43,799 nucleotides of DNA from an uncultured bacterium. GTDB lineage: Bacteria; CG03; CAZUQH01. The translations under genes were made by a program, and so were the position numbers. The notes under the pieces are model-generated. The model searched no databases and was not told where the DNA came from. It was given only the letters and a program-made list of their open reading frames with translations. Shown in pieces: positions 11,181-43,712 of the stretch. Where the stretch lies: the NCBI GenBank assembly GCA_964622465.1, contig CAZUQH010000005.1, forward strand, positions 1 to 43,799, read 5' to 3'. Within the stretch, counting starts at the first letter, position 1, and each line of letters opens with the position of its first letter.

Positions 11181-12797
11181 TTAAAAGGAAACATGAGCAT
11201 TTATCCCTACTCTGCTGTAATTTTGCAGATTCCGTTCACTGGTTCTGATAGCATCAAGAATACTCACACCGTCTGCTATCTTGACTTGAAAGGAATCATA
11301 TAGAAATTTGTCGCGCATATCCATTTCGTCATCTATTGAGAGCGGTAATGGCGATTTCCCCCAGCCGAGAAGTATTGCTACTGACCGGGCTGGCTGCCAG
11401 CCAATCCCTGCCCAGTGAGAATGGAAGAAATTATTTGAAGCGCTCTCAAACAACGAAAAAGTGCGCGCGTTCCAGAAGATAAAGAAATCACGGAGCAAAC
11501 CAATCCTAAGGTCCGAAACCACCTCAATTGTACTCAGGTCCGGGCCAGAAACTTCATACTGTCCGAACAGCGCGTTCAGTTTCAACTGCACAGGGCCCAA
11601 CGTCCACTTTGTTGTTCCAAGAACCTGTATCGTTTGTCCTGGAGATACAAGCGGAGAAGATGAATCAAAGACCTGGTATGGTAGCCAGAACCGGGCAACC
11701 AATGGGTCAAATGCAGAATCCACTGTGTCCGACTTCTTGTGGCGTAACCAGCTTGCCTCCACTCCTGACTGCACAACTGGCATGGAAAGGGTGAGCCCTG
11801 CGCACGGCCCTTCGTCCCTTGCTTCCCCTTCTCCGAAATACTGCGTCATGTCCCACCAATCCTGGCGCCAGCCAACCTGCCAGGACAAGAGATCTTCCGA
11901 ACCGCGAAATCCAACGATGTTCTTTCGTTCGTCATAAACAGGCCACGATTTGTCGCTGTCTGCATAAGTACCTGCGCCTTCGTTCCAGTGTGTAGTCACG
12001 AGTTCTCTTTTGCCGGCTACATATTCCTCAAAAAAGCGAAAGTGTCCCGGAACCAGGTCCATCTCAAACAATCCACCAGCGAGATAGGAGCAAATGGTTC
12101 CTTCGTACCAGACAGGGTTACCAGTGTCGTTTAACCCTGCTGCTGATTCTGGAGTCGGGAACCAGTTGTTGTCAGGGTTTGAGTAAGGGTACTTTATTCC
12201 ACGGTCTGACCGCATTAACAAGGTTAGCCGGGTTAGTCCCACCTCTCTTGAAGCCCAGCCGACGAATGTATCAACACCAGAATTAAAATTGTCGCAACCA
12301 AAAAATACAATGTTCGTATCCCATGGCATTGTCTGAAAGAGAACACCCTGTGTTCCGAGACCAAAGTTCAGATTGCGGTCAACTGTGTCGTACAACAATA
12401 TCTCTTTCTTCCTCAAGAACATTTCACCACGCATAATATTGAGAGGGTCACAAAGTTGAGTCACTTTCTCGTTTGAATGGAAAAGAAGCGAGAGCCACGG
12501 AAAACTAAAGCGCAGGTGTGCTTTGTCAAGGTCAAGAGCATAGCGGTCTTCGCCCGTATCAAAAGATAAGCGCGCAAATCCGTCCAGAACCTGTGCGAGA
12601 GAAAACCTCATATCCAATCCAAAGTAGTGCCAGGGCGTCTCAAGACGCCATTCCCTGTCTTTTTGCTCAACCCATGTATCAACGCCATACTTTCCTGAAA
12701 TGTTCATTGTTCCGGAATACGGAAATGTGACAGCGCCATACCCATGCGCATACAGGACAAGAAAGTATCCGAATACTGCTACGATTATTCGCCTCAT
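11181..12797 (-). CDS. predicted outer-membrane beta-barrel protein, unassigned family (538 aa)
   Basis: Signal peptide MRRIIVAVFGYFLVLYAHGYGA. No long hydrophobic helices. Aromatic-rich alternating pattern. C-terminal ...GINAHVSF ends in Phe as in BAM substrates. Distant paralog of the next gene. Confidence 0.5.
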   Translation of the reverse strand: MRRIIVAVFGYFLVLYAHGYGAVTFPYSGTMNISGKYGVDTWVEQKDREWRLETPWHYFGLDMRFSLAQVLDGFARLSFDTGEDRYALDLDKAHLRFSFPWLSLLFHSNEKVTQLCDPLNIMRGEMFLRKKEILLYDTVDRNLNFGLGTQGVLFQTMPWDTNIVFFGCDNFNSGVDTFVGWASREVGLTRLTLLMRSDRGIKYPYSNPDNNWFPTPESAAGLNDTGNPVWYEGTICSYLAGGLFEMDLVPGHFRFFEEYVAGKRELVTTHWNEGAGTYADSDKSWPVYDERKNIVGFRGSEDLLSWQVGWRQDWWDMTQYFGEGEARDEGPCAGLTLSMPVVQSGVEASWLRHKKSDTVDSAFDPLVARFWLPYQVFDSSSPLVSPGQTIQVLGTTKWTLGPVQLKLNALFGQYEVSGPDLSTIEVVSDLRIGLLRDFFIFWNARTFSLFESASNNFFHSHWAGIGWQPARSVAILLGWGKSPLPLSIDDEMDMRDKFLYDSFQVKIADGVSILDAIRTSERNLQNYSRVGINAHVSF

Positions 12798-26338: not shown

Positions 26339-27394
26339 TTATGTTTCGTCTGTCCTGGGTAAATACACCCGTGTTATCTTACCCTGCACTTTGTATGGAT
26401 ATACCCTGCCATCCTCGTCCGCAGGTGTCAGCCACACCAGATGCCCGTGCTCGGCAACATAGTCCCAGTCCATATGTTCAACCTTGAAATAGACCGGAAT
26501 CTTCTCTGCTGTCCTCCCAGATGCCATCTGGGTATAGGTATCAGGTGAATCCGTAGCCAATGGACCTACCATTGCAAGGTTAGCGTCCACTACATTTGCG
26601 TTCGTAGTTCCCTTGTAGCAGTCAGAAGATGTCACCACATAGTAGTAAGTGTTACCGAGAATCAAGTTGGTGTCATCCCACTGTTGACCATAACCGGCAG
26701 TGCTGTAGACAATCTCATAGTAGTCAGTCGGCGATGTTGCCTTGTAAACATAGTACTTTCCGCCTGCGATTACATCCACCGGCTTGAACGCTTCATTGAT
26801 GGTACCCCAGTCGCTGTTCCACGACCATGACAGCCGTATAGTACTGGTAGCCAGAGGAACTGCTTCAACACTTGACGGTGCGATTGGAGTTGATGCCCAG
26901 TTGCAATACACAAAGTACTTACTGATGTCCTGTGGTATCTCCACTTTCCTCCGTGCGTCTCCGCCTATGCTGATGTAGGAACCATTGCCGTCGTCAGTTA
27001 CTGTCACTGATGACTGGGATGTGATAAACGCCTGGTCACCGCCTTCTGTTGGCACACAGTCGTAGTAAGTTGTCTTGGTCAACAAGCCGGTCGGTGCCCA
27101 TGTATCAGGTGACACTGCAAAGAACATGAAGTTGTATTTTCCGCCTGGTACCAGGCCAATCTGGTACTGGTAGGTGCCGTCACCAACCGGTGTCATTGTT
27201 GCCATCTGGTCATTTGTCATATCGGCACGACCTGGCTCATTCCATGCGCTGATGCTCGTCCCTGACTGGATACAGATTTTTTTGGTCAGGTCTCCATACT
27301 CTCCGCCAGCGCCAGAACCGTCAAGCGCAAAGCTCGTGGATGCCGCAAGAATTCCAGCCAGACCAAATGCTGCAACTCTCAGTAGTTTGTTCAT
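26339..27394 (-). CDS. secreted protein that is a free-standing copy of the C-terminal repeat module of the 2611-aa GH13 protein
   Basis: Start ATG 27394 (MNKLLRVAAFGLAGILAASTSFA) behind AAGGGGGTGG. Blocks shared with the giant protein: DGTYQYQIGLVPGGKYNFMFFA, YYDCVP, GGDARRKVEIP, YCNWASTPIAP, VDVIAGGKYYVY and IPVYFKVEHMD. Confidence 0.75.
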   Translation of the reverse strand: MNKLLRVAAFGLAGILAASTSFALDGSGAGGEYGDLTKKICIQSGTSISAWNEPGRADMTNDQMATMTPVGDGTYQYQIGLVPGGKYNFMFFAVSPDTWAPTGLLTKTTYYDCVPTEGGDQAFITSQSSVTVTDDGNGSYISIGGDARRKVEIPQDISKYFVYCNWASTPIAPSSVEAVPLATSTIRLSWSWNSDWGTINEAFKPVDVIAGGKYYVYKATSPTDYYEIVYSTAGYGQQWDDTNLILGNTYYYVVTSSDCYKGTTNANVVDANLAMVGPLATDSPDTYTQMASGRTAEKIPVYFKVEHMDWDYVAEHGHLVWLTPADEDGRVYPYKVQGKITRVYLPRTDET

Positions 27395-30400: not shown

Positions 30401-33400
30401 GGAGGATAGTGTAGTAACTCAAATCTGGTTCTGCATTCTTTGTCCAGAAAACAGTAAGTTGGTTTGGTCCTGGAATTATTCCAACGCCACCTGGCGTTCT
30501 TGGAGGCCTGTCATTGTAATATCTCCAGACATTTGCTAATAACATTTCGCCGTTGCCTTCATCAATAATCTCTACATCAGGGACACTATTGTCTGTGAGT
30601 TCACCACGGCTTGAATCACTCAAGGAACCATCCAGAAATGCGTAACCAGCACTTCCTTCCCATATATCGTTTATTAGATATTTGTACTCAAGAAATGTTG
30701 TGTCATCAAATTCAAAAGTTCTCTGAAATGTCCCGTCACCGTTGTCCTCAAGTGGAACCTTTCCCCAGTAATCATTACTGAAAGCTAAAGCACCACCAGC
30801 AATAGTTACTGAACTTACACTTAAACCGCTATCTCTCGTATCAAGCCAGAAAGTTACTTTTATCGCTCGTGGAACAACAACAATTTCATTTGAAAGTGCT
30901 GACTTGTTCCCATTTCTGTCAACCGCACGAACGCGATAGTAGTAGGTCGTACCATTCTCAAGACGGTCATAGACATTGCCATCTGAGTCGAGTTTGCCAT
31001 CCAAGTTATTATCGTAAAAAAACGGCTTGAAGACCTCAAAAATTGGCTGTGGGTAAGAGTAATCTGGAATTGGTTGCCTGCTCCTGTAAATCAGATATGT
31101 TTGAATATCATCCTCAGTATTTTCCTGCCATGATAACATCACCGCCTGGTCCCTCGGTTTGGCGCTTAAGGATTTTGGTGCAGAAGGAGCAGTGTTGTCA
31201 ACTGCAAGAGTAAAATCAACGGTGTTATCACCAGGAGAAATTGTTTCATTTTTCCTATATATCTCATAACCAGGAGCCCATGCTTTTATTGAATGGTCTC
31301 CAGTGAGAACCCTTTCTATTGAATAGTTTCCGCCTGAATCTGCGGTTGTCGTCCAGTGACTCTTTCCGTCAACATCAACGATTGCATTTGGAACATTTAC
31401 AACACCAGAGACCGTTCCAGTGCTGTAACCGTTTTTAATCAAGATTCTTCCATAATGAGAATTGACCTGAATTGAAGAAATATTACCAATAGCATCTGTA
31501 TTAAATGTTTCGTCAGTAAGCCAGTCCTTATAAGTAGTGTTTTCATCACCTGTTCCAGCATCGTTCAGAGTTACATTACCGTTTGAGCGATTCATCATAA
31601 CAATTGCTTTCTGTCCCCAGCCGGTCCTGGAGAAAACAACAACATCCCCATCGTACTGCCCTCCGCTATACCATCCACGACTTTCTTTTTTAGGGTCGCC
31701 ACGAAGAGCGGGAAAATTTGCTCTTCCGTGAATTGTTTTCTTTAAGGCGCCTCTAACCTGGGACCAGGTAGAATCATTCAAACGACTCCAGGGCATAGGC
31801 CTGACATTTCCATCTCTATCCATTTTTGCTGGCTGGTTTCCATCATACGGTCCTTCCAGACCAAGTTCTCCACCATAGAAAAAGATTGGTGAAACACCGA
31901 CAGTAAAAGCTGTCATATAACCAATCTGCTGATGCCAGGGCGAATTGGATGACTCATCTCTACCACGGCTGATAAATCTTCTTTCATCGTGGTTTTCCAT
32001 CATTATTGGATTTATTGACCACTGGTTCTTGTTTGTTATCTGTTCATTATCAAGACCATTCCTTAAATCAATTGTACTGACTCCACCTCCTATCCCCCTG
32101 TCATAACCTGTCCCTGGCATTGCCCAGGAACTAATCCAGTACTCTCCTCCATTCTTATAACCCCCGCTTTTCATGTCCTCACCGCCGTGTATCATTGGTC
32201 CGTTGTCTCCTGTGAAATAATTGTTCCAGTAAACCCCTTCCGGTATTTCGCCCATTATGAATAATTGAGGGTCCCAGCGGTCAGTCAACTTTCTAAGTGC
32301 AAGGTTAAATTCTTTGTGCTCAAAACCATTTCCATATTCAGGAGGTGTATCATTCCAGAATTTTGGATTATCGTATCTGATTGCATCGCACATTGAGAAA
32401 TACCAGATTAAATTATTCAACCAGAAAGCACGTGCCTCTGCAAATTCCTGGATAGTTCCCCATCCGAATTGCTCCTGTCTGAAGAAATCAGGATTTTTTC
32501 TTGCTGTCGGAGAGTTCTTGCTTCCAACCTGACCGCAAACCCAGTCAACCATAACTTTTATATTATGATTATGGAGCGTCTTTACCATTTCAATATATTT
32601 AGAAGTTCTGCCAAACTTTGTTTCCTTCTGATATGCATCATCAATATTAAAACCCCAGATTCCTCCACCGAATTCTGTTGGAGGACCAAAATAAGCCATG
32701 TTTATTCCAAGGTCATTTAAGTAGCCAACTTTATCAATTACTCCTTGAAAATCGCCGCCATAATCATTGGTATCATTTATATCGTCATTTGAAGTATCGC
32801 CGTTATACCAGGCGTCAATGAACATGTTGTACAGAATATAATCAAGTGCTGATGGTGGAGCAGGAGAAATCCCTGCTTCTGGAGGTTGTGGCTCATCAGG
32901 AGGAGGTGTAAAATTCGCTTTTATTCCTCTTGCATCTGTTACTACACCTCTTGTTGAAAATGTTACAGAAAGATAATAATCAACAACCTTGTCCTGAACC
33001 TCAGTCCAGGTGTTCGTTCCAGAAGAAGTAATAACATCAACAATGTTTGAATTGTCCGCATCCCATTGTCCAATAGAGCCATCAGTTCCACCTTCGTTCC
33101 AGAAAGTTGCCACGGTAAAATTCACACTCTTTCCAAGGAATTTCTCTTTCCCGCCGAGTTTTTCAAGAGGCATCGCAACTTCATAAAAATAATTGTTATT
33201 GTTTTCCGAATATGCGCCGTATCTTGTATCTGTAAATAGCGAGTTTTGTGCACGCGTAATATCATTCCCTGTCACAACTTCAATAATCCACTCCCATGGG
33301 ACATCACCGGATACATAAGAATCCTCATATTGATTGTCCCTTCCTCTGAAAACTCTTTCAGTTGAGGCAAAGTCATTGTCAATCATAATCTGAACGAAAT

Positions 33401-35331: not shown

Positions 35332-36087
35332 TTATGGCGCTCCAAACCAGAAAGCACTGAAGTGCCGGTCATAGGCATTTGCTGTTCCATAGGCAGCGCC
35401 ATCATCTCCACTGCGCCATTCTACTTTGACCACCTTGCTGCCAGTAGTACTCACGGTATAGGCAGCGTTCATACCGAGAGGACACTTGCCCGGAAATCCA
35501 TTCTGTTCTGCCATAAACTCACCATATCCAACTGATGTACCATCAACATTGAACCTTACCGCAACCTTGGGGTATTGGTTTTCACTGATAGTGCGGAATA
35601 CAGTACCGTTAAAGTACAGGAAAATCGTCGCAGGTGCAGCAGTAATATTCAATGTCCCACGCATGTTGGGCATGTCAGACCAGGCATTTGAATTGGTAGT
35701 GACATTGCCGGTATCAAGGGTGAACGTTGAGGTAATAACCAAATCCTCGTTCTTAACTGTTCTGTTTCTTAATGCACCTTGCTCTATGTAAACATTGGAG
35801 GAAAACCTTGTTGCGTAGTTTGACGAATCATCGTAGATTTTCCTGTCTGTCTGGCTTGTACCAAAGAATATATCATTGCCTTTAACTCTAACATCTCCAC
35901 CGAAAGCTGCATCACCAACCGAGGTTATACTTGAAACTACAACTTCATTCTTATCTCTCACTTGAAATGAAGTTGAACCGTCGTCGGTGGTCAATTTCAC
36001 CTTTACGTCTTCCGCAAATGCCAGCTGAGCACGGACGAGCAGTTGAAGACCTGCAAGCAATAACAAGACAAAAATTGCCTTTTTCAT
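35332..36087 (-). CDS. small secreted protein of unknown function, paralog of 43041-43712
   Basis: Signal MKKAIFVLLLLAGLQLLVRAQLAFA behind GGAGG. Conserved block NDIFFGTSQTDRKIYDDSSNYATRFSSNVYI is shared with the other small protein. Confidence 0.7.
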   Translation of the reverse strand: MKKAIFVLLLLAGLQLLVRAQLAFAEDVKVKLTTDDGSTSFQVRDKNEVVVSSITSVGDAAFGGDVRVKGNDIFFGTSQTDRKIYDDSSNYATRFSSNVYIEQGALRNRTVKNEDLVITSTFTLDTGNVTTNSNAWSDMPNMRGTLNITAAPATIFLYFNGTVFRTISENQYPKVAVRFNVDGTSVGYGEFMAEQNGFPGKCPLGMNAAYTVSTTGSKVVKVEWRSGDDGAAYGTANAYDRHFSAFWFGAP

Positions 36088-36152
36088 TTTGTGCCTCCAT
36101 CCCCCTTAATTTGACACCTGTAACACATCACGAGTAAACTTCGCTACCATCG

Positions 36153-36632
36153 TCACCTTATAATCACTAACTTACCGGTTTTGCGGTGGTTGTCTTCGTC
36201 AAACGCATAGTATATGTACACGCCACTTGCAACAGGCCGGCCGGCGTCGTTTTCTGCAGGCCACTCTTCAAAGTTATCGTAGCCGGTATTTGTAATCTCT
36301 TTAACAAAATCGCCAGCAACAGTAAATATCCTTATTTTGGTGCTATCAGTCAAGTACTTGAAAATTATGTAAGGTGCGTCCTGCGAACCGCCACTGCCCG
36401 GATGATATGGATTCGGATAGACAATCATATTATCCAGATTCTCTGCAGGTGCTTGAGCCATCAATCCGTAGATTGATGTGTGCCAGATTCGCCCACGAAC
36501 AAGATTCTCTGTTACCTCAACCCAGCAATCCTCAACCTTTTGCCAGGACTGACTTTCATCACTAAGGGTGTACATCACCAGTGTTTTCTCTCCAACTGAA
36601 CGACCGATGTTGTCAATCAGTCCATCGTTATT
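36153..36632 (-). CDS. T9SS type-A-like C-terminal sorting-domain segment in the +1 frame, probably the displaced 3' end of the 2087-aa GH57 gene
   Basis: Translation ...ENNDGLIDNIGRSVGEKTLVMYTLSDESQSWQKVEDCW...MIVYPNPYHPGSGG...IRIFTVAGDFVKEI...SGVYIYYAFD...GKLVIIR parallels the last ~170 aa of the 862-aa protein. The ORF-track version (36153..36737) has no signal peptide. Its first ~35 codons overlap the GH57 ORF and show no homology. Confidence 0.6.
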   Translation of the reverse strand, partial: NNDGLIDNIGRSVGEKTLVMYTLSDESQSWQKVEDCWVEVTENLVRGRIWHTSIYGLMAQAPAENLDNMIVYPNPYHPGSGGSQDAPYIIFKYLTDSTKIRIFTVAGDFVKEITNTGYDNFEEWPAENDAGRPVASGVYIYYAFDEDNHRKTGKLVIIR

Positions 36633-39600
36633 TTCGTCCGAATACGGCAAATACCTTATTATTCTTGAGGACATATTCTGGTTCTCCATCAAGGTCAATA
36701 TCCACTGAACAGGCAAGAACAGAATTCCACTGACCATCCGAAACTTCCTGTGCCCATCTTGCTGCTGATGAAATAATTACTGCGTAGCGAATGTGGCCGT
36801 GGAGTGCAAGAGCCCAGCCGGATATAGCATCATAAGTAGTGTCTGCTGGACCAAACTTATCCGTGCTATCTTCGTCATGCCATGCTGTCTCATAAGTGAG
36901 GGTATTGAACACCATTCCTGCATAATCTTTCAACTGATTTGATGGCGCATTTTTGATTGAGTTCCAGGTATCTCTCAAGAGTGTGCCAGCACTGTTTATG
37001 TGCCCATAGGTCTTGCCAGATGGTAATGGGACACCACTTCTGACAACTGGAACTCTGTTTGCGAATGACTGTTCAAACGACGAACCCCAGTACCAGTTGT
37101 CGTACGAACCTTCGCAGGCGTGTGTGAGCCAGTCGTATGTTTTCACCGGCAGGCTTATGTTTGTCCCGTGGTCAATTGCAGTCCAGCCCCGCGAAAGGAT
37201 ATCTTCAAGCGTAACCGTCTCTATCCACTGATGACTTGCGAGCCATTTGACTGTCTTATCCCAGTTGTCCGCGTTATCATTTGGAAGTTCGGATGTGAAA
37301 GACCGGCCACTATACGCTTCCCAGTCATCAAATACAAGAACAAGTTGCTGCTGGTCCTGGTCGCGCGCGAGACGGTTCAAGAGTTTGCGTGTCTCTATAT
37401 GCAACCCGCTATCCTGATTCCAGAACTTGGTTCCATCCGGCTCCTGGTCACCCCCAGGCGGTAGGCCAAGCCGTGCATCAATCCCGTTTATCAAGAATAC
37501 ATACACGCCGTTTATCTTGTGGAGTTTGAACCGCTGTGAATCAGGCATTCCGAACCAGTCCTTCATATGGTATCTGTCATCAAGAACAGTTGCTGTATAG
37601 CCGGTCGGGTTTCCAGTTTCATGGTTGGTAAGTATATCAGCAAAGGTTTGTCCGCGCACAACTCTCTCAGGAATCCAGAAAACCTCTGGCTGGGTTGTAA
37701 GGTCATAAATAGACATAAGAACGGACGTGCCATCTTGAATTGCTTTAGAGTTTACAAAAAGGCCCGCTGCCGCGTTATCTTCAAAATACGGCATGATATG
37801 TTCTGCGAGAACCCCGCCTATGATTGCGACTCGACCTTGCGCAGCAAGGTCAGGAATCCGGTCATTGAACAATGGCTGTGCCCATTCAATTGCCGAAGCG
37901 AGCGTGCCTGAAACATGTATGTTTGCTTTCACGCCATAGTTCTCTACCGCGTCAAGACCACGGGAATAGCCGGTCGGCGTATGATTGGTTTCCTCCCGGT
38001 ATATCCAGTCCCTTATGTCTTTTGCTTTGTTCAAGGATTGATTCCCATGATAAATGAAAGCATACTTCGCACGGCCGGTAGTAGCAGTTGATGAAACACC
38101 TCCATATAGAAAACCACCTGCACGGTCAATCGTTGCGCCAATAGCATCTACTACATCCGAGCCGGTTATCTCGCCAGGCCCGTTTTCTGTACCGTCTTTG
38201 GTCGTAAAGCACTGAATATTCAAAGCCGAGCCAGGCGACCACCCTGCATTCTCCAGAACTGACTTTCTTATAGCGAGTCCAACACTGTCAAGGTCACTTC
38301 TAAAAGACGCACCCTGGAATGCATCATTGAACACTCCCCCTGTGGAGTTATACACATTGTAGTTTGTAGCGTCATAAAGGCATATTGCGACTTCCCATAG
38401 CAAGTCCGTCTGAGTGTCTGTGAAATCAGGAAGCCAGTTCTGTCCGCCAGGGGCACAGTCAATCAGTATGTACAAATCAAGGTAGCCGTTTTCCGCATAA
38501 ATCCCGAGTTCGTGAAAATCAACCCTGAAGTAGTAATTGTTTTGTCCTTCGCGGGAATAGAGAGCAACTATATCGCGCGAAGTATCATAACCGTCACCGA
38601 AGTTGTAAGTATCTTCGTATGGGTCAAGAGCACGCACATCACTGAATTTCCAGTCAAGGAAATTTCCGTCAATTGTTCTTTCCTCAAATGTTGGGGCTTC
38701 ATAAGGCGTTGCGCTCTTTTCGGTGGATGGAGCAGAGATGTTTCCCGCAGTATCCGATGCTCTAACAACCACATAATATGTTGTCCAGTTCGTCAATCCA
38801 GAGATGACATAAAATGTCGTAGTTGGAGCTATGAGAGAACTTGAGTATGGATATTCGCCTGTAGCAGTGCCATGTCTGACAAAGTATCCGGCAAGGTCCG
38901 GCTCTGTATTTGCATTCCATCTGACCTCAATTGCCTGATTCTTTGCACTGAGTGCCAAGCCGGTTGGCGCCTGTGGCGCAAGGTCTTCACCTGCTATTGC
39001 CTGAACCGGTCCGATGAGTCCTGATTTCTGGCCAGCAAGGTCCTGAGCATCTATCTTGAAATAGTATGTTTGCCCCGTAACAAGACCTGTAACCTGCCAT
39101 GATGTAGAAGTTGCTGAAGCAAGATAAGAGTAGTTTAGATTTGGGTCAAAAGTGCTCCTGTAGATATTGTATTTTTCGAGGTCGTATTCAATATTCGGGT
39201 CCCAGTTAAGAAGCACTCCGGATGCGTTGTCGGTTGCGCGCAGATTGACAGGTACAAGTGGAATTGGGTCACCGGCGACATTCCACTTGTTTGAGACATA
39301 CATTTTTGGTCCGTTGTTTGCTGCAATTGTAATCTTTCGGTTGTTGTCTGGCGCTGTCCCAAAGTCGCTCTCCCGGGTGGTTCCGTTCATAACATACTTA
39401 TACTGCAATTCAACACCTGGCGCGAGGCTCAAAGTAATCTTCCATACGCCTGTAAGATTTCCCGTCTGTTCAGTCATAGCGTAATATGTTGTGCTCCAGG
39501 TTGGTGCAAGAACATTCTGTGCAATTGCGACAGAACTTACACCTGCCACACCTCTCATATCTACTTGAAAAACAACCTCAATCAGCGATTGTGGAACTGC

Positions 39601-42600
39601 CCAGACAACGGAAGAATACGCACTTTCGCCTCCGCTATCATTTACTGCTGTGAGTTTATAATAATGCGTGACACCGTTGACTAAACTTGTATGGCAATAT
39701 GTGGTTGAGGTTATGAGACCTGTATTTACAAGAAAATAACCAGCAGTTGTTGAACACCAGAGATTGTAACCAGCGAGGTCTGCTTCACTGTTTGCATTCC
39801 AGGAAAGGTCTATCTTCTGGTTACCAGCAACTGCCTTTAGCCCCTGCGGCTGAGAAGGTGGCGGAACAACTTGAGCAACAACCGCAAGCTCAGAAGCAGC
39901 TGGGCTTTCATTGATGTTATTGTCCATGCTGGTTAGTTGATAGTAGTATGTGCAACCACCGGTAAGACCCGTATCCTGGTGTGTTGTTCCTGGAGGAAGG
40001 ATACTTGCGACAAACGTTTTTTCGCCAAACGGACAAGAATATGTAGAACGATATATCCTGTATGAAGCGAGGTCTGTCTCCAGATTCTTAGTCCAGGAAA
40101 GGTTCACTTTTTCCACCCCGCCCCAGCCAACAATTCCTTCTGGGGTTTGTGGCGGAATGTTATCCGTTGCAACAGGCGCGGTTGTAACAGGAGAGGAATA
40201 TGCGCTTTCCACATTAAGTCCAGTTGACTTTTGAGATGTTACTGCATATGTGTAGGTCGTTCCGTTTACAAGTGGATTTCCCGAAGGAGTTGAAACAGTA
40301 ACAGTATAGCCGGTAGTCCAGGTCACAAGGGAGGCGAGCTTCACATAGGTGGAACCCGCGACATTCCATTCGTAGATATTGTATCCCGCGAGTGACACAC
40401 CCGTAACCTGCTCCCAGGAAAGGTCAATCGCCTGATTTTTTGCAGTCGGAGTGAGTCGCTGTGGAGCAGGCGGAGGATTTGTATCCGCAGGCGAAACAAT
40501 TATTTTCCAGTCCGCACCGCCATTATTGTCCCAGGTGTTGTCGTCCCAGTGGAAACAGAAATTTATCTCTGATACCGGTTGACTGCCCATAAAAGGTCCG
40601 AGAGTTATGTAGTACGATGTGCCGTTGAATAGAAGCTGAGTTTCAACTGAAAGTGAATCATACACGGTTGTAGTTGAGTTAGTTGGCCAGTATTCTGAGG
40701 ACGGATGGGTCCAGCCGTTCACGCCCCAGTGAAGTTTCCCTGGTTTGCCAAGTTGAGAACCAAAGATTGTGACCTGCTGGTCACTGGTTGGATTTTGTGG
40801 AGTCCAGAGCCCGCTTGTTTCTTCAAAACTTGCATCCCCAACCCAGACATGCTGGATTGCGGTCTTTCTCACATTTCCTTTCTTGTCAACTGCTTCAATG
40901 TAGTAGTCAACAAGTTTATTTGTCCCTACATTTACATGCGCCCAGTATCTAAGCGGAAGATATTTTGGTGTGCAAGGTGGGGGGTCTTGAAGAGTTTCAT
41001 TCAAGTAAACCTTTACCGGCCATGTGCCGGACGACATTGTAATTTCCTGCCAGGCACTAACTGCTGTCCCGCCAGAATATGTGTAGTTGTCGGGAGCTAT
41101 TGGCGTGGTGTTTGCACCAGTTGCGGTGCGGTACTTCAATTTCACTGAAGAAAGTCCGGATGCGTCATATACGAAAGTGAAAACATCAAAATCACAGGGA
41201 TATGTCCATGACTTCCAGTTATACGCAACACCGTAATTGAGTGAGCCAGGGTTATATGGAAAGCGTTGTGGAACCCAGACAGTTGGCGGAACGGTATCGG
41301 AGGCACCGGCAGAAAGTTCACCTTCGCCTATGACCGCATCAGCAAAGTCACAGGCCTTGTTTCCAGCAACAATCGGTATGAAAGTGAAATCAGAAGATGT
41401 TCCATAGTAGATGTGACCGGAATCTGCAAAACCCAGAAGATAGTGCCAGGCCTTCTCAACATTATTTGAGGTGACTTCTGGATGCAAGATATTATTGATG
41501 TTTGGGGCACCAACATAAGATTCAGCAGTAAGAACCCTGTTTGAAACCGCGGTCATTATAGCCCAGTACTGTGAATTATCATCCCAGGAGTTGACCGGGT
41601 CAAATGTTGGTTTATCTGGATAATTATTCTTGACCCATGGCCAGTTCCAGTTAGAAAATGTCGGCGAGCCAAAATCAGAATCAGCATTCACCCACGAACC
41701 GTCTTCTACATGGACAATATCGTTAACATCTACTGGAAAGTTAGCCAGATACTCTTCTGTTGTGCTTGGCACATAACCCCTTGCTGAGGCGCCAGATGCC
41801 TTATTTGGCGTGTTTGTCATATACGAATCATAACCGCCACCCCACGCATTGTCACCATCATGTGCAAGAACAACAAGTGGTGGTTTCCCAACCTCAGCCG
41901 CCTGAGCAATTGCATCAAAAAGGTCAACCGGAAATGCACTATAGCCATCAACATAACCTTCGTAGTCAGCACACGGAACAACAATTATCTTGCTTGGAGT
42001 TCCGGTTTCAGGGTCAATATATTGTGCGTAATGCGGCCTATAGGAGAAACGGAGCTCGTTTGTGGTTGGCCTTCCATCAATTGATGCATTTCGCCACACT
42101 GAGCCGGTTCCATTTGACTGGCCTGCCTTGTTCGGTGGTTCTGTATTCATTCCATTGCCAGGAGTTGCTGGCCAGTTTGAGAGACAGCGCGACAGATGTG
42201 AATTCGCAACATAGGTCCAGTTAATTCCTTCGCTTTTGAGTATTGGAATCATCCGCTCTGAAAATGCGAGTTCAAGTGGCCAGAAGCCAGTTGACATTGG
42301 AACTGCTGTACCCCATGCCTCTCCATATATTGCTTTGTACAACTGTATGTAGCGCCGCGCAACTGTGTCATCTGGAAGGAGCGGGAAGAACGGATGGTGA
42401 AATCCGGTGAGGACTATGTTCATTCTTGACTTACCACCAACTGTAGTCCATCCGCGCGCCTCCCGCCACGGAGTTTTCCAGTCAGGAGAATAACCAAGGC
42501 GGTACTGGTCACCAAGTGCCTTCACATTCATGGCAAGAGCGCCGGTGTAGGAAACAGTGAAGCCAGCTTCAGGATAGGAAGTTATGGTACTCAGTGCGTC

Positions 42601-42891
42601 ACGTGGTCTTGACTGGTACGCAGCAACCCGGTCATCTTTGCCAAAAATAGCACCAAGGTCATTTGCAGGATGACCAGCCCAGGGATTAGTATTCTTGTAG
42701 TCAATTGATTCTGGTGCGAGTTCCCATCTTTGAATCCCTGCCCTGCTTGGCATCGGCCAGTATATCGGCTGATGAAGGTGCCAGTGGTTTACATAATGAA
42801 GAGCGTCAGTTGCAGAAAATGCAGTTGCGGTGCATACAAGGAGAGTAGCCAGACTGGAGAGAATATAGCAGCGATTCCGAATTCTTCTCAT
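36628..42891 (-). CDS. giant secreted protein with two GH57 catalytic modules separated by FN3/CBM domains (2087 aa to a premature-looking stop)
   Basis: Signal MRRIRNRCYILSSLATLLVCTATAFSA. Module 1 (about nt 41302-42804): VNHWHLHQPIYWP, FHHPFFPLL, GFWPLELAFS, LAHDGDNAWGG. Module 2 (about nt 36727-38079): AFIYHGNQS, GRVAIIGGVLAEHIMPYF, FWIPERVV, LVFDDWEAYSG, ACEGSYDNWYWG. At least five FN3 signatures, a CBM20-like segment and a CBM9-like segment lie between them. Confidence 0.8.
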   Translation of the reverse strand: MRRIRNRCYILSSLATLLVCTATAFSATDALHYVNHWHLHQPIYWPMPSRAGIQRWELAPESIDYKNTNPWAGHPANDLGAIFGKDDRVAAYQSRPRDALSTITSYPEAGFTVSYTGALAMNVKALGDQYRLGYSPDWKTPWREARGWTTVGGKSRMNIVLTGFHHPFFPLLPDDTVARRYIQLYKAIYGEAWGTAVPMSTGFWPLELAFSERMIPILKSEGINWTYVANSHLSRCLSNWPATPGNGMNTEPPNKAGQSNGTGSVWRNASIDGRPTTNELRFSYRPHYAQYIDPETGTPSKIIVVPCADYEGYVDGYSAFPVDLFDAIAQAAEVGKPPLVVLAHDGDNAWGGGYDSYMTNTPNKASGASARGYVPSTTEEYLANFPVDVNDIVHVEDGSWVNADSDFGSPTFSNWNWPWVKNNYPDKPTFDPVNSWDDNSQYWAIMTAVSNRVLTAESYVGAPNINNILHPEVTSNNVEKAWHYLLGFADSGHIYYGTSSDFTFIPIVAGNKACDFADAVIGEGELSAGASDTVPPTVWVPQRFPYNPGSLNYGVAYNWKSWTYPCDFDVFTFVYDASGLSSVKLKYRTATGANTTPIAPDNYTYSGGTAVSAWQEITMSSGTWPVKVYLNETLQDPPPCTPKYLPLRYWAHVNVGTNKLVDYYIEAVDKKGNVRKTAIQHVWVGDASFEETSGLWTPQNPTSDQQVTIFGSQLGKPGKLHWGVNGWTHPSSEYWPTNSTTTVYDSLSVETQLLFNGTSYYITLGPFMGSQPVSEINFCFHWDDNTWDNNGGADWKIIVSPADTNPPPAPQRLTPTAKNQAIDLSWEQVTGVSLAGYNIYEWNVAGSTYVKLASLVTWTTGYTVTVSTPSGNPLVNGTTYTYAVTSQKSTGLNVESAYSSPVTTAPVATDNIPPQTPEGIVGWGGVEKVNLSWTKNLETDLASYRIYRSTYSCPFGEKTFVASILPPGTTHQDTGLTGGCTYYYQLTSMDNNINESPAASELAVVAQVVPPPSQPQGLKAVAGNQKIDLSWNANSEADLAGYNLWCSTTAGYFLVNTGLITSTTYCHTSLVNGVTHYYKLTAVNDSGGESAYSSVVWAVPQSLIEVVFQVDMRGVAGVSSVAIAQNVLAPTWSTTYYAMTEQTGNLTGVWKITLSLAPGVELQYKYVMNGTTRESDFGTAPDNNRKITIAANNGPKMYVSNKWNVAGDPIPLVPVNLRATDNASGVLLNWDPNIEYDLEKYNIYRSTFDPNLNYSYLASATSTSWQVTGLVTGQTYYFKIDAQDLAGQKSGLIGPVQAIAGEDLAPQAPTGLALSAKNQAIEVRWNANTEPDLAGYFVRHGTATGEYPYSSSLIAPTTTFYVISGLTNWTTYYVVVRASDTAGNISAPSTEKSATPYEAPTFEERTIDGNFLDWKFSDVRALDPYEDTYNFGDGYDTSRDIVALYSREGQNNYYFRVDFHELGIYAENGYLDLYILIDCAPGGQNWLPDFTDTQTDLLWEVAICLYDATNYNVYNSTGGVFNDAFQGASFRSDLDSVGLAIRKSVLENAGWSPGSALNIQCFTTKDGTENGPGEITGSDVVDAIGATIDRAGGFLYGGVSSTATTGRAKYAFIYHGNQSLNKAKDIRDWIYREETNHTPTGYSRGLDAVENYGVKANIHVSGTLASAIEWAQPLFNDRIPDLAAQGRVAIIGGVLAEHIMPYFEDNAAAGLFVNSKAIQDGTSVLMSIYDLTTQPEVFWIPERVVRGQTFADILTNHETGNPTGYTATVLDDRYHMKDWFGMPDSQRFKLHKINGVYVFLINGIDARLGLPPGGDQEPDGTKFWNQDSGLHIETRKLLNRLARDQDQQQLVLVFDDWEAYSGRSFTSELPNDNADNWDKTVKWLASHQWIETVTLEDILSRGWTAIDHGTNISLPVKTYDWLTHACEGSYDNWYWGSSFEQSFANRVPVVRSGVPLPSGKTYGHINSAGTLLRDTWNSIKNAPSNQLKDYAGMVFNTLTYETAWHDEDSTDKFGPADTTYDAISGWALALHGHIRYAVIISSAARWAQEVSDGQWNSVLACSVDIDLDGEPEYVLKNNKVFAVFGRK

Positions 42892-43040: not shown

Positions 43041-43712
43041 TCAGTATCTCGGCCGTATATACAGAACACTTACATTACACATTCCTACGCTGCCGTTACT
43101 TGTATAATAATATGTTTCTATCTTCTTGACACCGTCCCATGTAACATTTTGCCAGGAACCTTCTGCATAAGTCTCGTCTGTGCTGGTTATTGAGATCCAA
43201 GTACCCCATTCGTCATTTGTTACATTCTTCCAATTGTAGGATGTGGTTTCCCCAGATGTATTATTATTACCCCATACAACAATTTTCACCTGGATTCTAC
43301 CCCCTGGAGAGATATCAGTTCCATTGACTATACAGTGACTCCAGGGGACAGCCGTAGCGGAACCACTGGTTGTTGTCTGGTTAGAGCTACCCTTATATAG
43401 AGGCACGCAAGTGACAGGCGGATTAGTACCAAGATACGCACCAGCAACATAGACATGTGAAGAGAACTTGGTTGCATAATTGGAATTATCATCACTTATG
43501 TAGCGAGAAGTTTGTGATGCACCAAGGTAAAAGTTATCTACTACTCTTGCATTACTTTTTAAGGTAGTATTTCCTGTGATGTAACTCTCACCACTTCCAT
43601 CAATCTGTAAAGCCGTCGCAGCATACATATTTTCTGTCATCGCTCCGATAAAAAACACCAACAAGTGGAGTAAAACAACTTTTTCAAATCTAACTTTATT
43701 AGAATTAAACAT
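43041..43712 (-). CDS. small secreted protein of unknown function, paralog of 35332-36087
   Basis: ATG 43712 lies 8 nt after AAGGAGG (43721-43727). N-terminus MFNSNKVRFEKVVLLHLLVFFIGAMTENMYA. Conserved block DNFYLGASQTSRYISDDNSNYATKFSSHVYV. Confidence 0.7.
   Translation of the reverse strand: MFNSNKVRFEKVVLLHLLVFFIGAMTENMYAATALQIDGSGESYITGNTTLKSNARVVDNFYLGASQTSRYISDDNSNYATKFSSHVYVAGAYLGTNPPVTCVPLYKGSSNQTTTSGSATAVPWSHCIVNGTDISPGGRIQVKIVVWGNNNTSGETTSYNWKNVTNDEWGTWISITSTDETYAEGSWQNVTWDGVKKIETYYYTSNGSVGMCNVSVLYIRPRY

Follow-up and report, generated by a model that had tools for sequence, protein, structure and literature searches.

The contig CAZUQH010000005.1 of assembly GCA_964622465.1, derived from an uncultured bacterium of the CG03 lineage, provides the 43,799-nucleotide stretch of DNA that was analysed here and is referred to in its whole length as the window. 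On its minus strand, at positions 36628..42891, it carries the gene of a giant enzyme of the GH57 family, whose reading frame closes early at the 3' end, while a C-terminal sorting domain (CTD) lies stranded one frame over. This frame break is real and occurs in every contig examined. Relative to all homologues a segment of the protein is missing, and at the junction homology to the family can be recognised in both frames. The break is probably the scar of a single out-of-frame deletion, which left behind an intact but unusable sorting domain. In effect, it looks like ordinary gene decay and not like programmed frameshifting.

The truncated gene encodes 2087 amino acids (aa), arranged from the N to the C terminus as a signal peptide, GH57 module 1, carbohydrate-binding module (CBM) and Fn3 repeats, and GH57-like module 2, an order shared with the orthologue P0007. 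Module 1 passes the Pfam cut-off for GH57 (PF03065; 60.7 bits against 21.2, E 1.9e-16, best stretch at residues 155-234), and the protein also matches Pfam fn3. Module 2 is assigned to the family by motifs read by eye, namely regions of the HGNQ, WIPER, FDDWE and DNWYWG type together with the family DxDxDG...AVF strand, and by homologues that have PF03065 matches; against PDB sequences it gave no meaningful match. Four codons past the conserved strand ...KNNKVFAVF the frame ends as G-R-K-stop. The C terminus thus reads ...DIDLDGEPEYVLKNNKVFAVFGRK, with the in-frame TAA at 36628-36630, the same in every contig compared, next to a coding-strand run of four A (A4) at 36631-36634. In the +1 frame of the minus strand, the text runs as ...RIIRYLPYSDENNDGLIDNIGRSV...VYPNPYHPGSGG...GKLVIIR, also given as ...RIIRYLPYSDENNDGLIDNIGRSVGEK...MIVYPNPYHPGSGG...GKLVIIR, up to a stop that ends at 36153. 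The letters of the junction in the contig, within 36500-36800, are TTCGGACGAAAATAACG.

This arrangement, a GH57 open reading frame (ORF) cut at TAA beside A4 with sorting-domain text in the +1 frame, had been described in the original prediction, and both the ORF map and a hidden Markov model (HMM) match of the tail bear it out. The same prediction noted that a 194-aa ORF without a signal peptide covers the tail frame (36153..36737, minus strand in the ORF listing of the window), which also holds. The called tail ORFs of 173, 178 and 194 aa all start within out-of-frame GH57 sequence, and none has a credible signal peptide.

The stranded tail can be resolved into two parts. The first, at 36429..36650 on the minus strand, is the second half of a conserved beta domain that precedes the CTD (the pre-CTD domain), comprising its DxNxDG loop and later strands and corresponding to positions 91 to about 170 of the 261-position tail HMM. 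The second, at 36156..36428 with its stop at 36153-36155, is an intact CTD resembling those of the type IX secretion system (T9SS), running from IVYPNP to GKLVIIR, which is recognised by profile matches and is detached from any signal-peptide protein. The HMM was built on seven paralogous tails from the same metagenome-assembled genome (MAG; 1.3 Mb in 93 contigs, 95% complete), in which tblastn finds at least seven full-length paralogous tails, that of an 862-aa protein among them. Against this model the +1-frame tail scores 170.5 bits (E 7.8e-54) and, judged by this match, it is a genuine coding module and not a product of chance.

The match of the tail to the HMM is confined to positions 91-261, and the alignment opens at RIIRYLPYSD. 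Positions 1-90 are absent in all three forward frames of 36100-37400. In the paralogues of the same genome the conserved region begins about 90 residues ahead of the ...IPY-x-DxDxDG loop, and the full pre-CTD domain is present in these paralogues as well as in the relative G042. Four beta-strands are predicted for the missing part when a paralogue is modelled with AlphaFold. The tail is therefore cut in the middle of a module, and a read-through protein would fuse a domain severed after its first strand with the back half of another. The original prediction had also likened the tail to that of the 862-aa protein, including the spacing of two DxxxDG loops. The likeness itself is real (35% identity by tblastn, 3e-21), but the loop spacing is largely coincidental, because in homologues DIDLDGEPEY...AVF is the conserved start of the C-terminal domain of the GH57 module itself.

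The curated family models recognise the sorting domain below their thresholds. TIGR04183 gives 20.4 bits on the tail (cut-off 23) and CHU_C gives 18.7 bits (cut-off 27), while the NCBIfam model of the PorZ C terminus reaches 2.4e-13 but stays far under its whole-protein cut-off. The CTD-like beta-sandwich fold is seen in the AlphaFold model of a paralogous tail, on contig C88, and not in one of the window's own copy. That model has a mean predicted local distance difference test score (pLDDT) of 72, with 83-91 in 10-residue blocks across residues 191-250 within the CTD, and its best PDB matches are PorZ (5m11, E 1.1e-5) and PorU (6za2, E 4.9e-5). A CTD at the extreme C terminus of a Sec signal-peptide protein is found in the paralogues and orthologues, and not in the window's GH57 gene. 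As a separate observation, one paralogous CTD tail (G000:C2, about 11920-12378) enters an N/X stretch, a masked region or scaffold gap, shortly before its last residues.

Comparison with relatives indicates what should follow the AVF strand. The last roughly 200 residues before the stop have homologues in G018 (contig C39), in a contig of an 'Ignavibacteria' MAG (63% identity) and in a third MAG, and after ...NNK[VI]FAVF these homologues go on to E..GGR and a conserved domain some 200 aa long, for which a Pfam search gave no family. In a large protein search, 57 homologues align over the final 54 residues, and every one of them runs on past AVF with E..GGR, for 188-1300 residues beyond the point at which the window's protein stops. 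At least 188 post-AVF residues that are always present in the family (57/57) are thus missing from the GH57 giant of the window. A tblastn search of the MAG with three post-AVF domains found no other copy.

The complete form of the G018 gene, P0007, is 3459 aa long and lies entirely in one frame, in the order GH57 module 1, Fn3 domains, GH57-like module 2, post-AVF domain, about ten Fn3 repeats, pre-CTD domain and CTD. Similarly, G042 has an 8931-aa open frame with a GH57-like module and a complete pre-CTD and CTD tail. The third relative, G041 (5422 aa), has a different end and no CTD. The comparison of orthologous loci that the original prediction had called for has therefore found GH57-like module and tail joined in a single frame in both G018/P0007 and G042, which likely show the ancestral layout. 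Compared with these relatives, a segment is missing from the window, and its two breakpoints lie inside conserved domains.

The position at which the frames change is central to the interpretation of the break. In the GH57 frame, homology reaches AVF (36640) at the least and may include GR (36634), since the tblastn match to L004 in this frame reaches 36634 (...AVFGR). In the tail frame, the HMM score rises by 9.4 bits when LPYS is added and falls by 3.7 bits when D-E is dropped, and homology therefore begins at or before 36650; the frame-0 residues KNNKVFAVF add only 0.4 bits to the tail HMM score. The 12 nucleotides (nt) TTGCCGTATTCG at 36639..36650 (minus strand) consequently show family homology twice: the GH57 frame reads them as (F)AVF, the tail frame as LPYS. 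The change of frame accordingly falls inside 36639-36650 or beside it, and so upstream of the A4 run, not at it. The original prediction had proposed that the removal of one A would yield a protein of about 2245 aa. A single-base change does open one long ORF, but this repair does not recreate an ancestral protein, because the frame change lies upstream of the run. Of the three options raised in that prediction, recent inactivation is the best supported, although not as the one-base change at A4 that was proposed.

The preferred history would consist of one event of illegitimate recombination, namely an internal deletion between two microhomologous stretches of about 12 nt that stood in different frames. 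The ancestral gene would have encoded, in a single frame, the signal peptide, GH57 module 1, the CBM and Fn3 repeats and GH57-like module 2, followed by the C-terminal beta-sandwich, an Fn3 array, the pre-CTD beta domain and the T9SS-like CTD. The deletion would then have begun just past ...KNNKVFAVF, where the beta-sandwich has completed its first strand, and ended halfway through the pre-CTD domain, at ...LPYS|DENNDG; judged by the 3459-aa relative, at least about 1100 aa would have been lost. The ancestral strings around GTATTTGCCGTATTCGA, after AVF, and TTGCCGTATTCGGACGAA, before DENNDG, would have lain several kb apart and one base out of register. Because of this shift in register, translation of the joined gene ends four codons on, at G-R-K-stop, and the half-domain with the CTD would remain as an untranslated but still intact remnant. 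The 12 nt at 36639-36650 would represent the retained copy of the microhomology. Homology in two frames is found over this stretch, with just one copy of the repeat visible, as no undeleted allele was found. The dual-frame signal is supportive of the deletion, not decisive.

The main rival to a single deletion is a history in two steps, which appears unlikely. It supposes that an in-frame deletion or fusion first produced a functional enzyme of about 2245 aa (...KNNKVFAVF-DENNDG...CTD), and that a single-base insertion followed later, for example as the extra G in TTC-G-GAC or as an A in the A-run. This history is the recent inactivation of the original prediction. Several features agree with such a course: the tail ORF is fully intact at 170 bits with a complete CTD, the GH57 AVF and the DENNDG of the tail stand just one base apart (G at 36639), and a single-base change restores one long ORF, with AAAT read as K and the last 1.1 kb included. 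This history nevertheless needs two events where one suffices, and under it the +9.4 bits that LPYS contributes in the tail frame would be a matter of chance. Its A-run version is further contradicted by the D-E homology upstream of the run. In addition, the fused protein would combine a beta-sandwich cut after its first strand with a pre-CTD domain devoid of HMM positions 1-90, and such a short architecture is found in none of the 57 homologues.

It might also be asked whether the single deletion is a genomic event at all, or whether the join arose during sequencing or assembly. The MAG consists of 93 contigs, and repeat-rich giant genes are prone to mis-assembly, so that an indel error of 1 nt might be considered, as might a chimera of two genomic places. 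Exact copies of the 2087-aa protein and of the 173-aa tail ORF are present in a public protein collection, and the latter is found on 18 contigs. In all ten of these 18 contigs that are listed, which stem from different datasets and from ENA MEGAHIT assemblies in three cases, JGI assemblies in four and Logan assemblies in three, the junction is identical to the letter and the gene layout is the same. L032, L033, L034/L044 and L045 likewise align over the junction without any difference there. Over about 17 kb, the contigs show at least 99.9% identity to the window; the population is therefore nearly clonal, with the break in every copy examined.

An artefact is a very unlikely explanation of the break. 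The junction and its flanks are identical across three assembly pipelines and more than ten datasets, and the sequencing indel that the original prediction had listed among its options is refuted by this agreement between independent assemblies. A homopolymer of four A is not error-prone in short-read chemistry. The shared stretch of about 12-17 nt would be too short for a de Bruijn join at k=31-141. Moreover, the MAG has no contig carrying the missing domain, and no longer allele exists either in the 90% cluster or among the homologue matches.

The last option was that ribosomes change frame at the stop codon. As the +1 shift of Euplotes takes place at an AAA-UAA motif (PMC5011710), the idea of recoding was put to the test in the window. 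According to this explanation, +1 frameshifting at CGA-AAA-UAA-C, either programmed or useful at a low level, would leave most of the product without a CTD and a fraction of it anchored at the surface. Resemblance to the Euplotes AAA-UAR sites is evident in that UAA comes in frame directly after the lysine codon AAA, with a recognisable domain in the +1 frame. After a slip from AAA to AAU, tRNA-Lys can retain two of its three base pairs, and a C behind UAA gives a weak context for termination. The undecayed tail and the presence of the break in every contig examined would also agree with frameshifting, but in a nearly clonal population an intact tail says little for it.

The evidence gathered on the site itself makes ribosomal frameshifting improbable. 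No orthologue or paralogue has a frame break, and G018 and G042 are read in a single frame. Within the 20 nt before the stop, GUAUUCGGACGAAAAUAA, there is no Shine–Dalgarno-like (GGAGG-like) element, and the 151 nt around the stop fold no better than shuffled sequences (z -0.23). A genome-wide search for AAA-TAR ends with a long +1 continuation revealed no split gene among the candidates examined; these were either non-coding frames or ordinary neighbours that have starts of their own. Where a long overlap was inspected, it involved a CTD protein with a PorV-like gene behind it, or again non-coding frames. AAA-TAR ends were found in 16 of 196 ORFs with a +1 continuation and in 47 of 935 overall, a test confounded by ordinary adjacent genes. 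The shifted product would be incoherent, built of truncated domains that lack the beta-sandwich and HMM positions 1-90, and homology in the tail frame starts upstream of the proposed shift site. Additionally, the upstream gene has further knock-out variants.

In contrast to both the Euplotes sites and the CUU-UGA-C site of bacterial prfB (RF2), the site in the window is unconserved, has no stimulator and has no further counterparts among the genomic sites examined. Bacterial release factors, moreover, read UAA efficiently, which sets the window apart from Euplotes. The +1 recoding at AAA-UAA suggested in the original prediction therefore finds no support, although spontaneous slippage at a low level may occur. 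The specific version in which Euplotes-like slippage adds a T9SS-type sorting domain to a minority of the giant amylase copies is very improbable. If it were true, one gene would provide both CTD-less (periplasmic or unanchored) and surface-anchored forms, and the scar would be tolerated or co-opted through low-level shifting.

Population variants provide another view of the state of the gene. Three different additional disruptions of the GH57 giant occur at the level of assemblies, each in a contig from another sample: a nonsense variant, CAG to TAG (Q1163*), at 39405 in a JGI 3300025022 contig (L032); an insertion of T at 39643, causing a frameshift near codon 1083, in a JGI 3300025868 contig; and a 1-nt deletion at 41912, causing a frameshift near codon 342, in the ENA ERZ27293372 contig (L035), all on the minus strand. 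Among the ten contigs fetched via the tail ORF, one of the nine complete GH57 copies is disrupted (L044). No disruption was seen in the neighbouring 2611-aa GH13 giant over about 56 kb of the same contig set. These extra disruptions are suggestive of further decay of the GH57 gene, which appears to be under relaxed selection.

A number of observations weigh against the history of a single deletion and subsequent decay. An L-P-[YF] string would arise by chance in the +1 frame in about 1 of 16 cases, given the FAVF codons (an estimate from the codon table). In eight of the nine complete copies of the tail-ORF contig set, the truncated ORF of 6.3 kb is undisrupted, and both Q1163* (L032) and the deletion in L035 came from a cluster look-up that was biased by length. 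The tail of 161 codons contains no stops and no degraded motifs; this would fit a very recent event but equally continued translation. Its source might also be a neighbouring gene and not the 3' end of the GH57 gene itself. Finally, a contig scan of public genomes found the closest relative at 63% identity and a search of 5.8 billion proteins found the closest at 57%, neither yielding an undeleted allele, while a scan of metagenome contigs with the junction-spanning peptide returned no relative from a collection that apparently leaves out near-identical records. With no undeleted allele and no relative above 63%, the junction sequences of the ancestor are a reconstruction and not an observation, and so, in consequence, is the microhomology.

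Considered together with known systems, the favoured deletion resembles the formation of bacterial pseudogenes by microhomology deletion or replication slippage, with which it shares a missing segment, an ambiguous junction stretch, an out-of-frame join and extra disruptions. It differs in that the two repeat copies are deduced and in that the upstream ORF of 2087 aa, with two catalytic modules, is still open and may work. Unlike the multidomain starch-active enzymes of the GH57 family, the protein has a module 2 without a C-terminal beta-sandwich, a domain that all 57 homologues possess. The enzyme would still be exported by the Sec route, but the CTD route could neither deliver it to the outer surface nor hold it there any longer, and it would be either unanchored or periplasmic. 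This suggests that a starch degrader with a small genome has ceased to display one of its two amylolytic giants on its surface, and that the gene is maybe on its way out.

These considerations also have consequences for annotation. The 'gene' of 173-194 aa, being a remnant, should not be annotated as a protein, and the GH57 giant should be annotated as C-terminally truncated and without a sorting domain. More generally, what resembles a recoding site in a bacterium, AAA-UAA beside an open +1 frame, can be the scar of a deletion; the two can be distinguished by examining both frames for homology over the junction.

The stranded domain also raises the matter of the secretion route. The paralogues end in a beta domain of about 90 aa of the YPNP...GKLxIIR type, like the T9SS type A CTD (TIGR04183/PF18962) of P. 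gingivalis cargo, PorZ and PorU; relatives pair CTD proteins with PorV-like barrels, and the paralogue model is nearest to PorZ and PorU. Differences from T9SS are that the stranded domain scores under the curated cut-offs, that it is out of frame and off its cargo, and that the SprA-like ORF remains sub-threshold. This 1759-aa ORF on C13 (G000:C13:12008-14851, minus strand) aligns with TIGR04189 as four collinear pieces, of which the best scores 74.6 bits (cut-off 200). In the MAG, the PorU model matches solely the CTD-like ends of many proteins, and no PorU catalytic part was found. From these two results, the route used by the CTD proteins of this small genome is probably, as read from the profile matches, not a canonical T9SS.

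The gene neighbourhood differs as well. In G018 and G042, the gene right after the CTD-bearing GH57 giant encodes a barrel (L019:6301-7167 and L021:387-1796); that of G042 exceeds the 27-bit cut-off of Pfam PorV with 33.4 bits, and that of G018 has the shared motif only. In the window, the stranded CTD is followed by a secreted protein of 251 aa (35332-36087) with no family match, and no PorV-like barrel is present there.

The population contigs also reveal an uneven pattern of substitutions. Over about 17 kb of 12 contigs, 44 of 45 substitutions are nonsynonymous. Outside the GH57 gene, nearly all of them fall into four minus-strand patches, at 43087-43363, 35396-35694, 31484-31660 and 27125-27166, which cover the C-terminal halves of two paralogous small secreted ORFs (226 and 251 aa), codons 1220-1279 of the GH13 giant and codons 98-111 of a 372-aa ORF. 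Several sites are triallelic, and many changes occur at AAY codons. A diversity-generating retroelement (DGR) was considered as the source of these patches of single-nucleotide polymorphisms, but it is not supported, since the MAG contains neither a template-repeat copy nor an RVT_1 (PF00078) reverse transcriptase. Strong diversifying selection on surface loops seems likelier.

At the other side of the window, the longer ENA contig k141_756621, which belongs to the same population, runs past its high-coordinate end and carries there a 492-aa gene (L036:499-1977) with a match to Pfam UPF0236, a transposase-like family. A mobile element may thus mark the point at which the window's contig ends.

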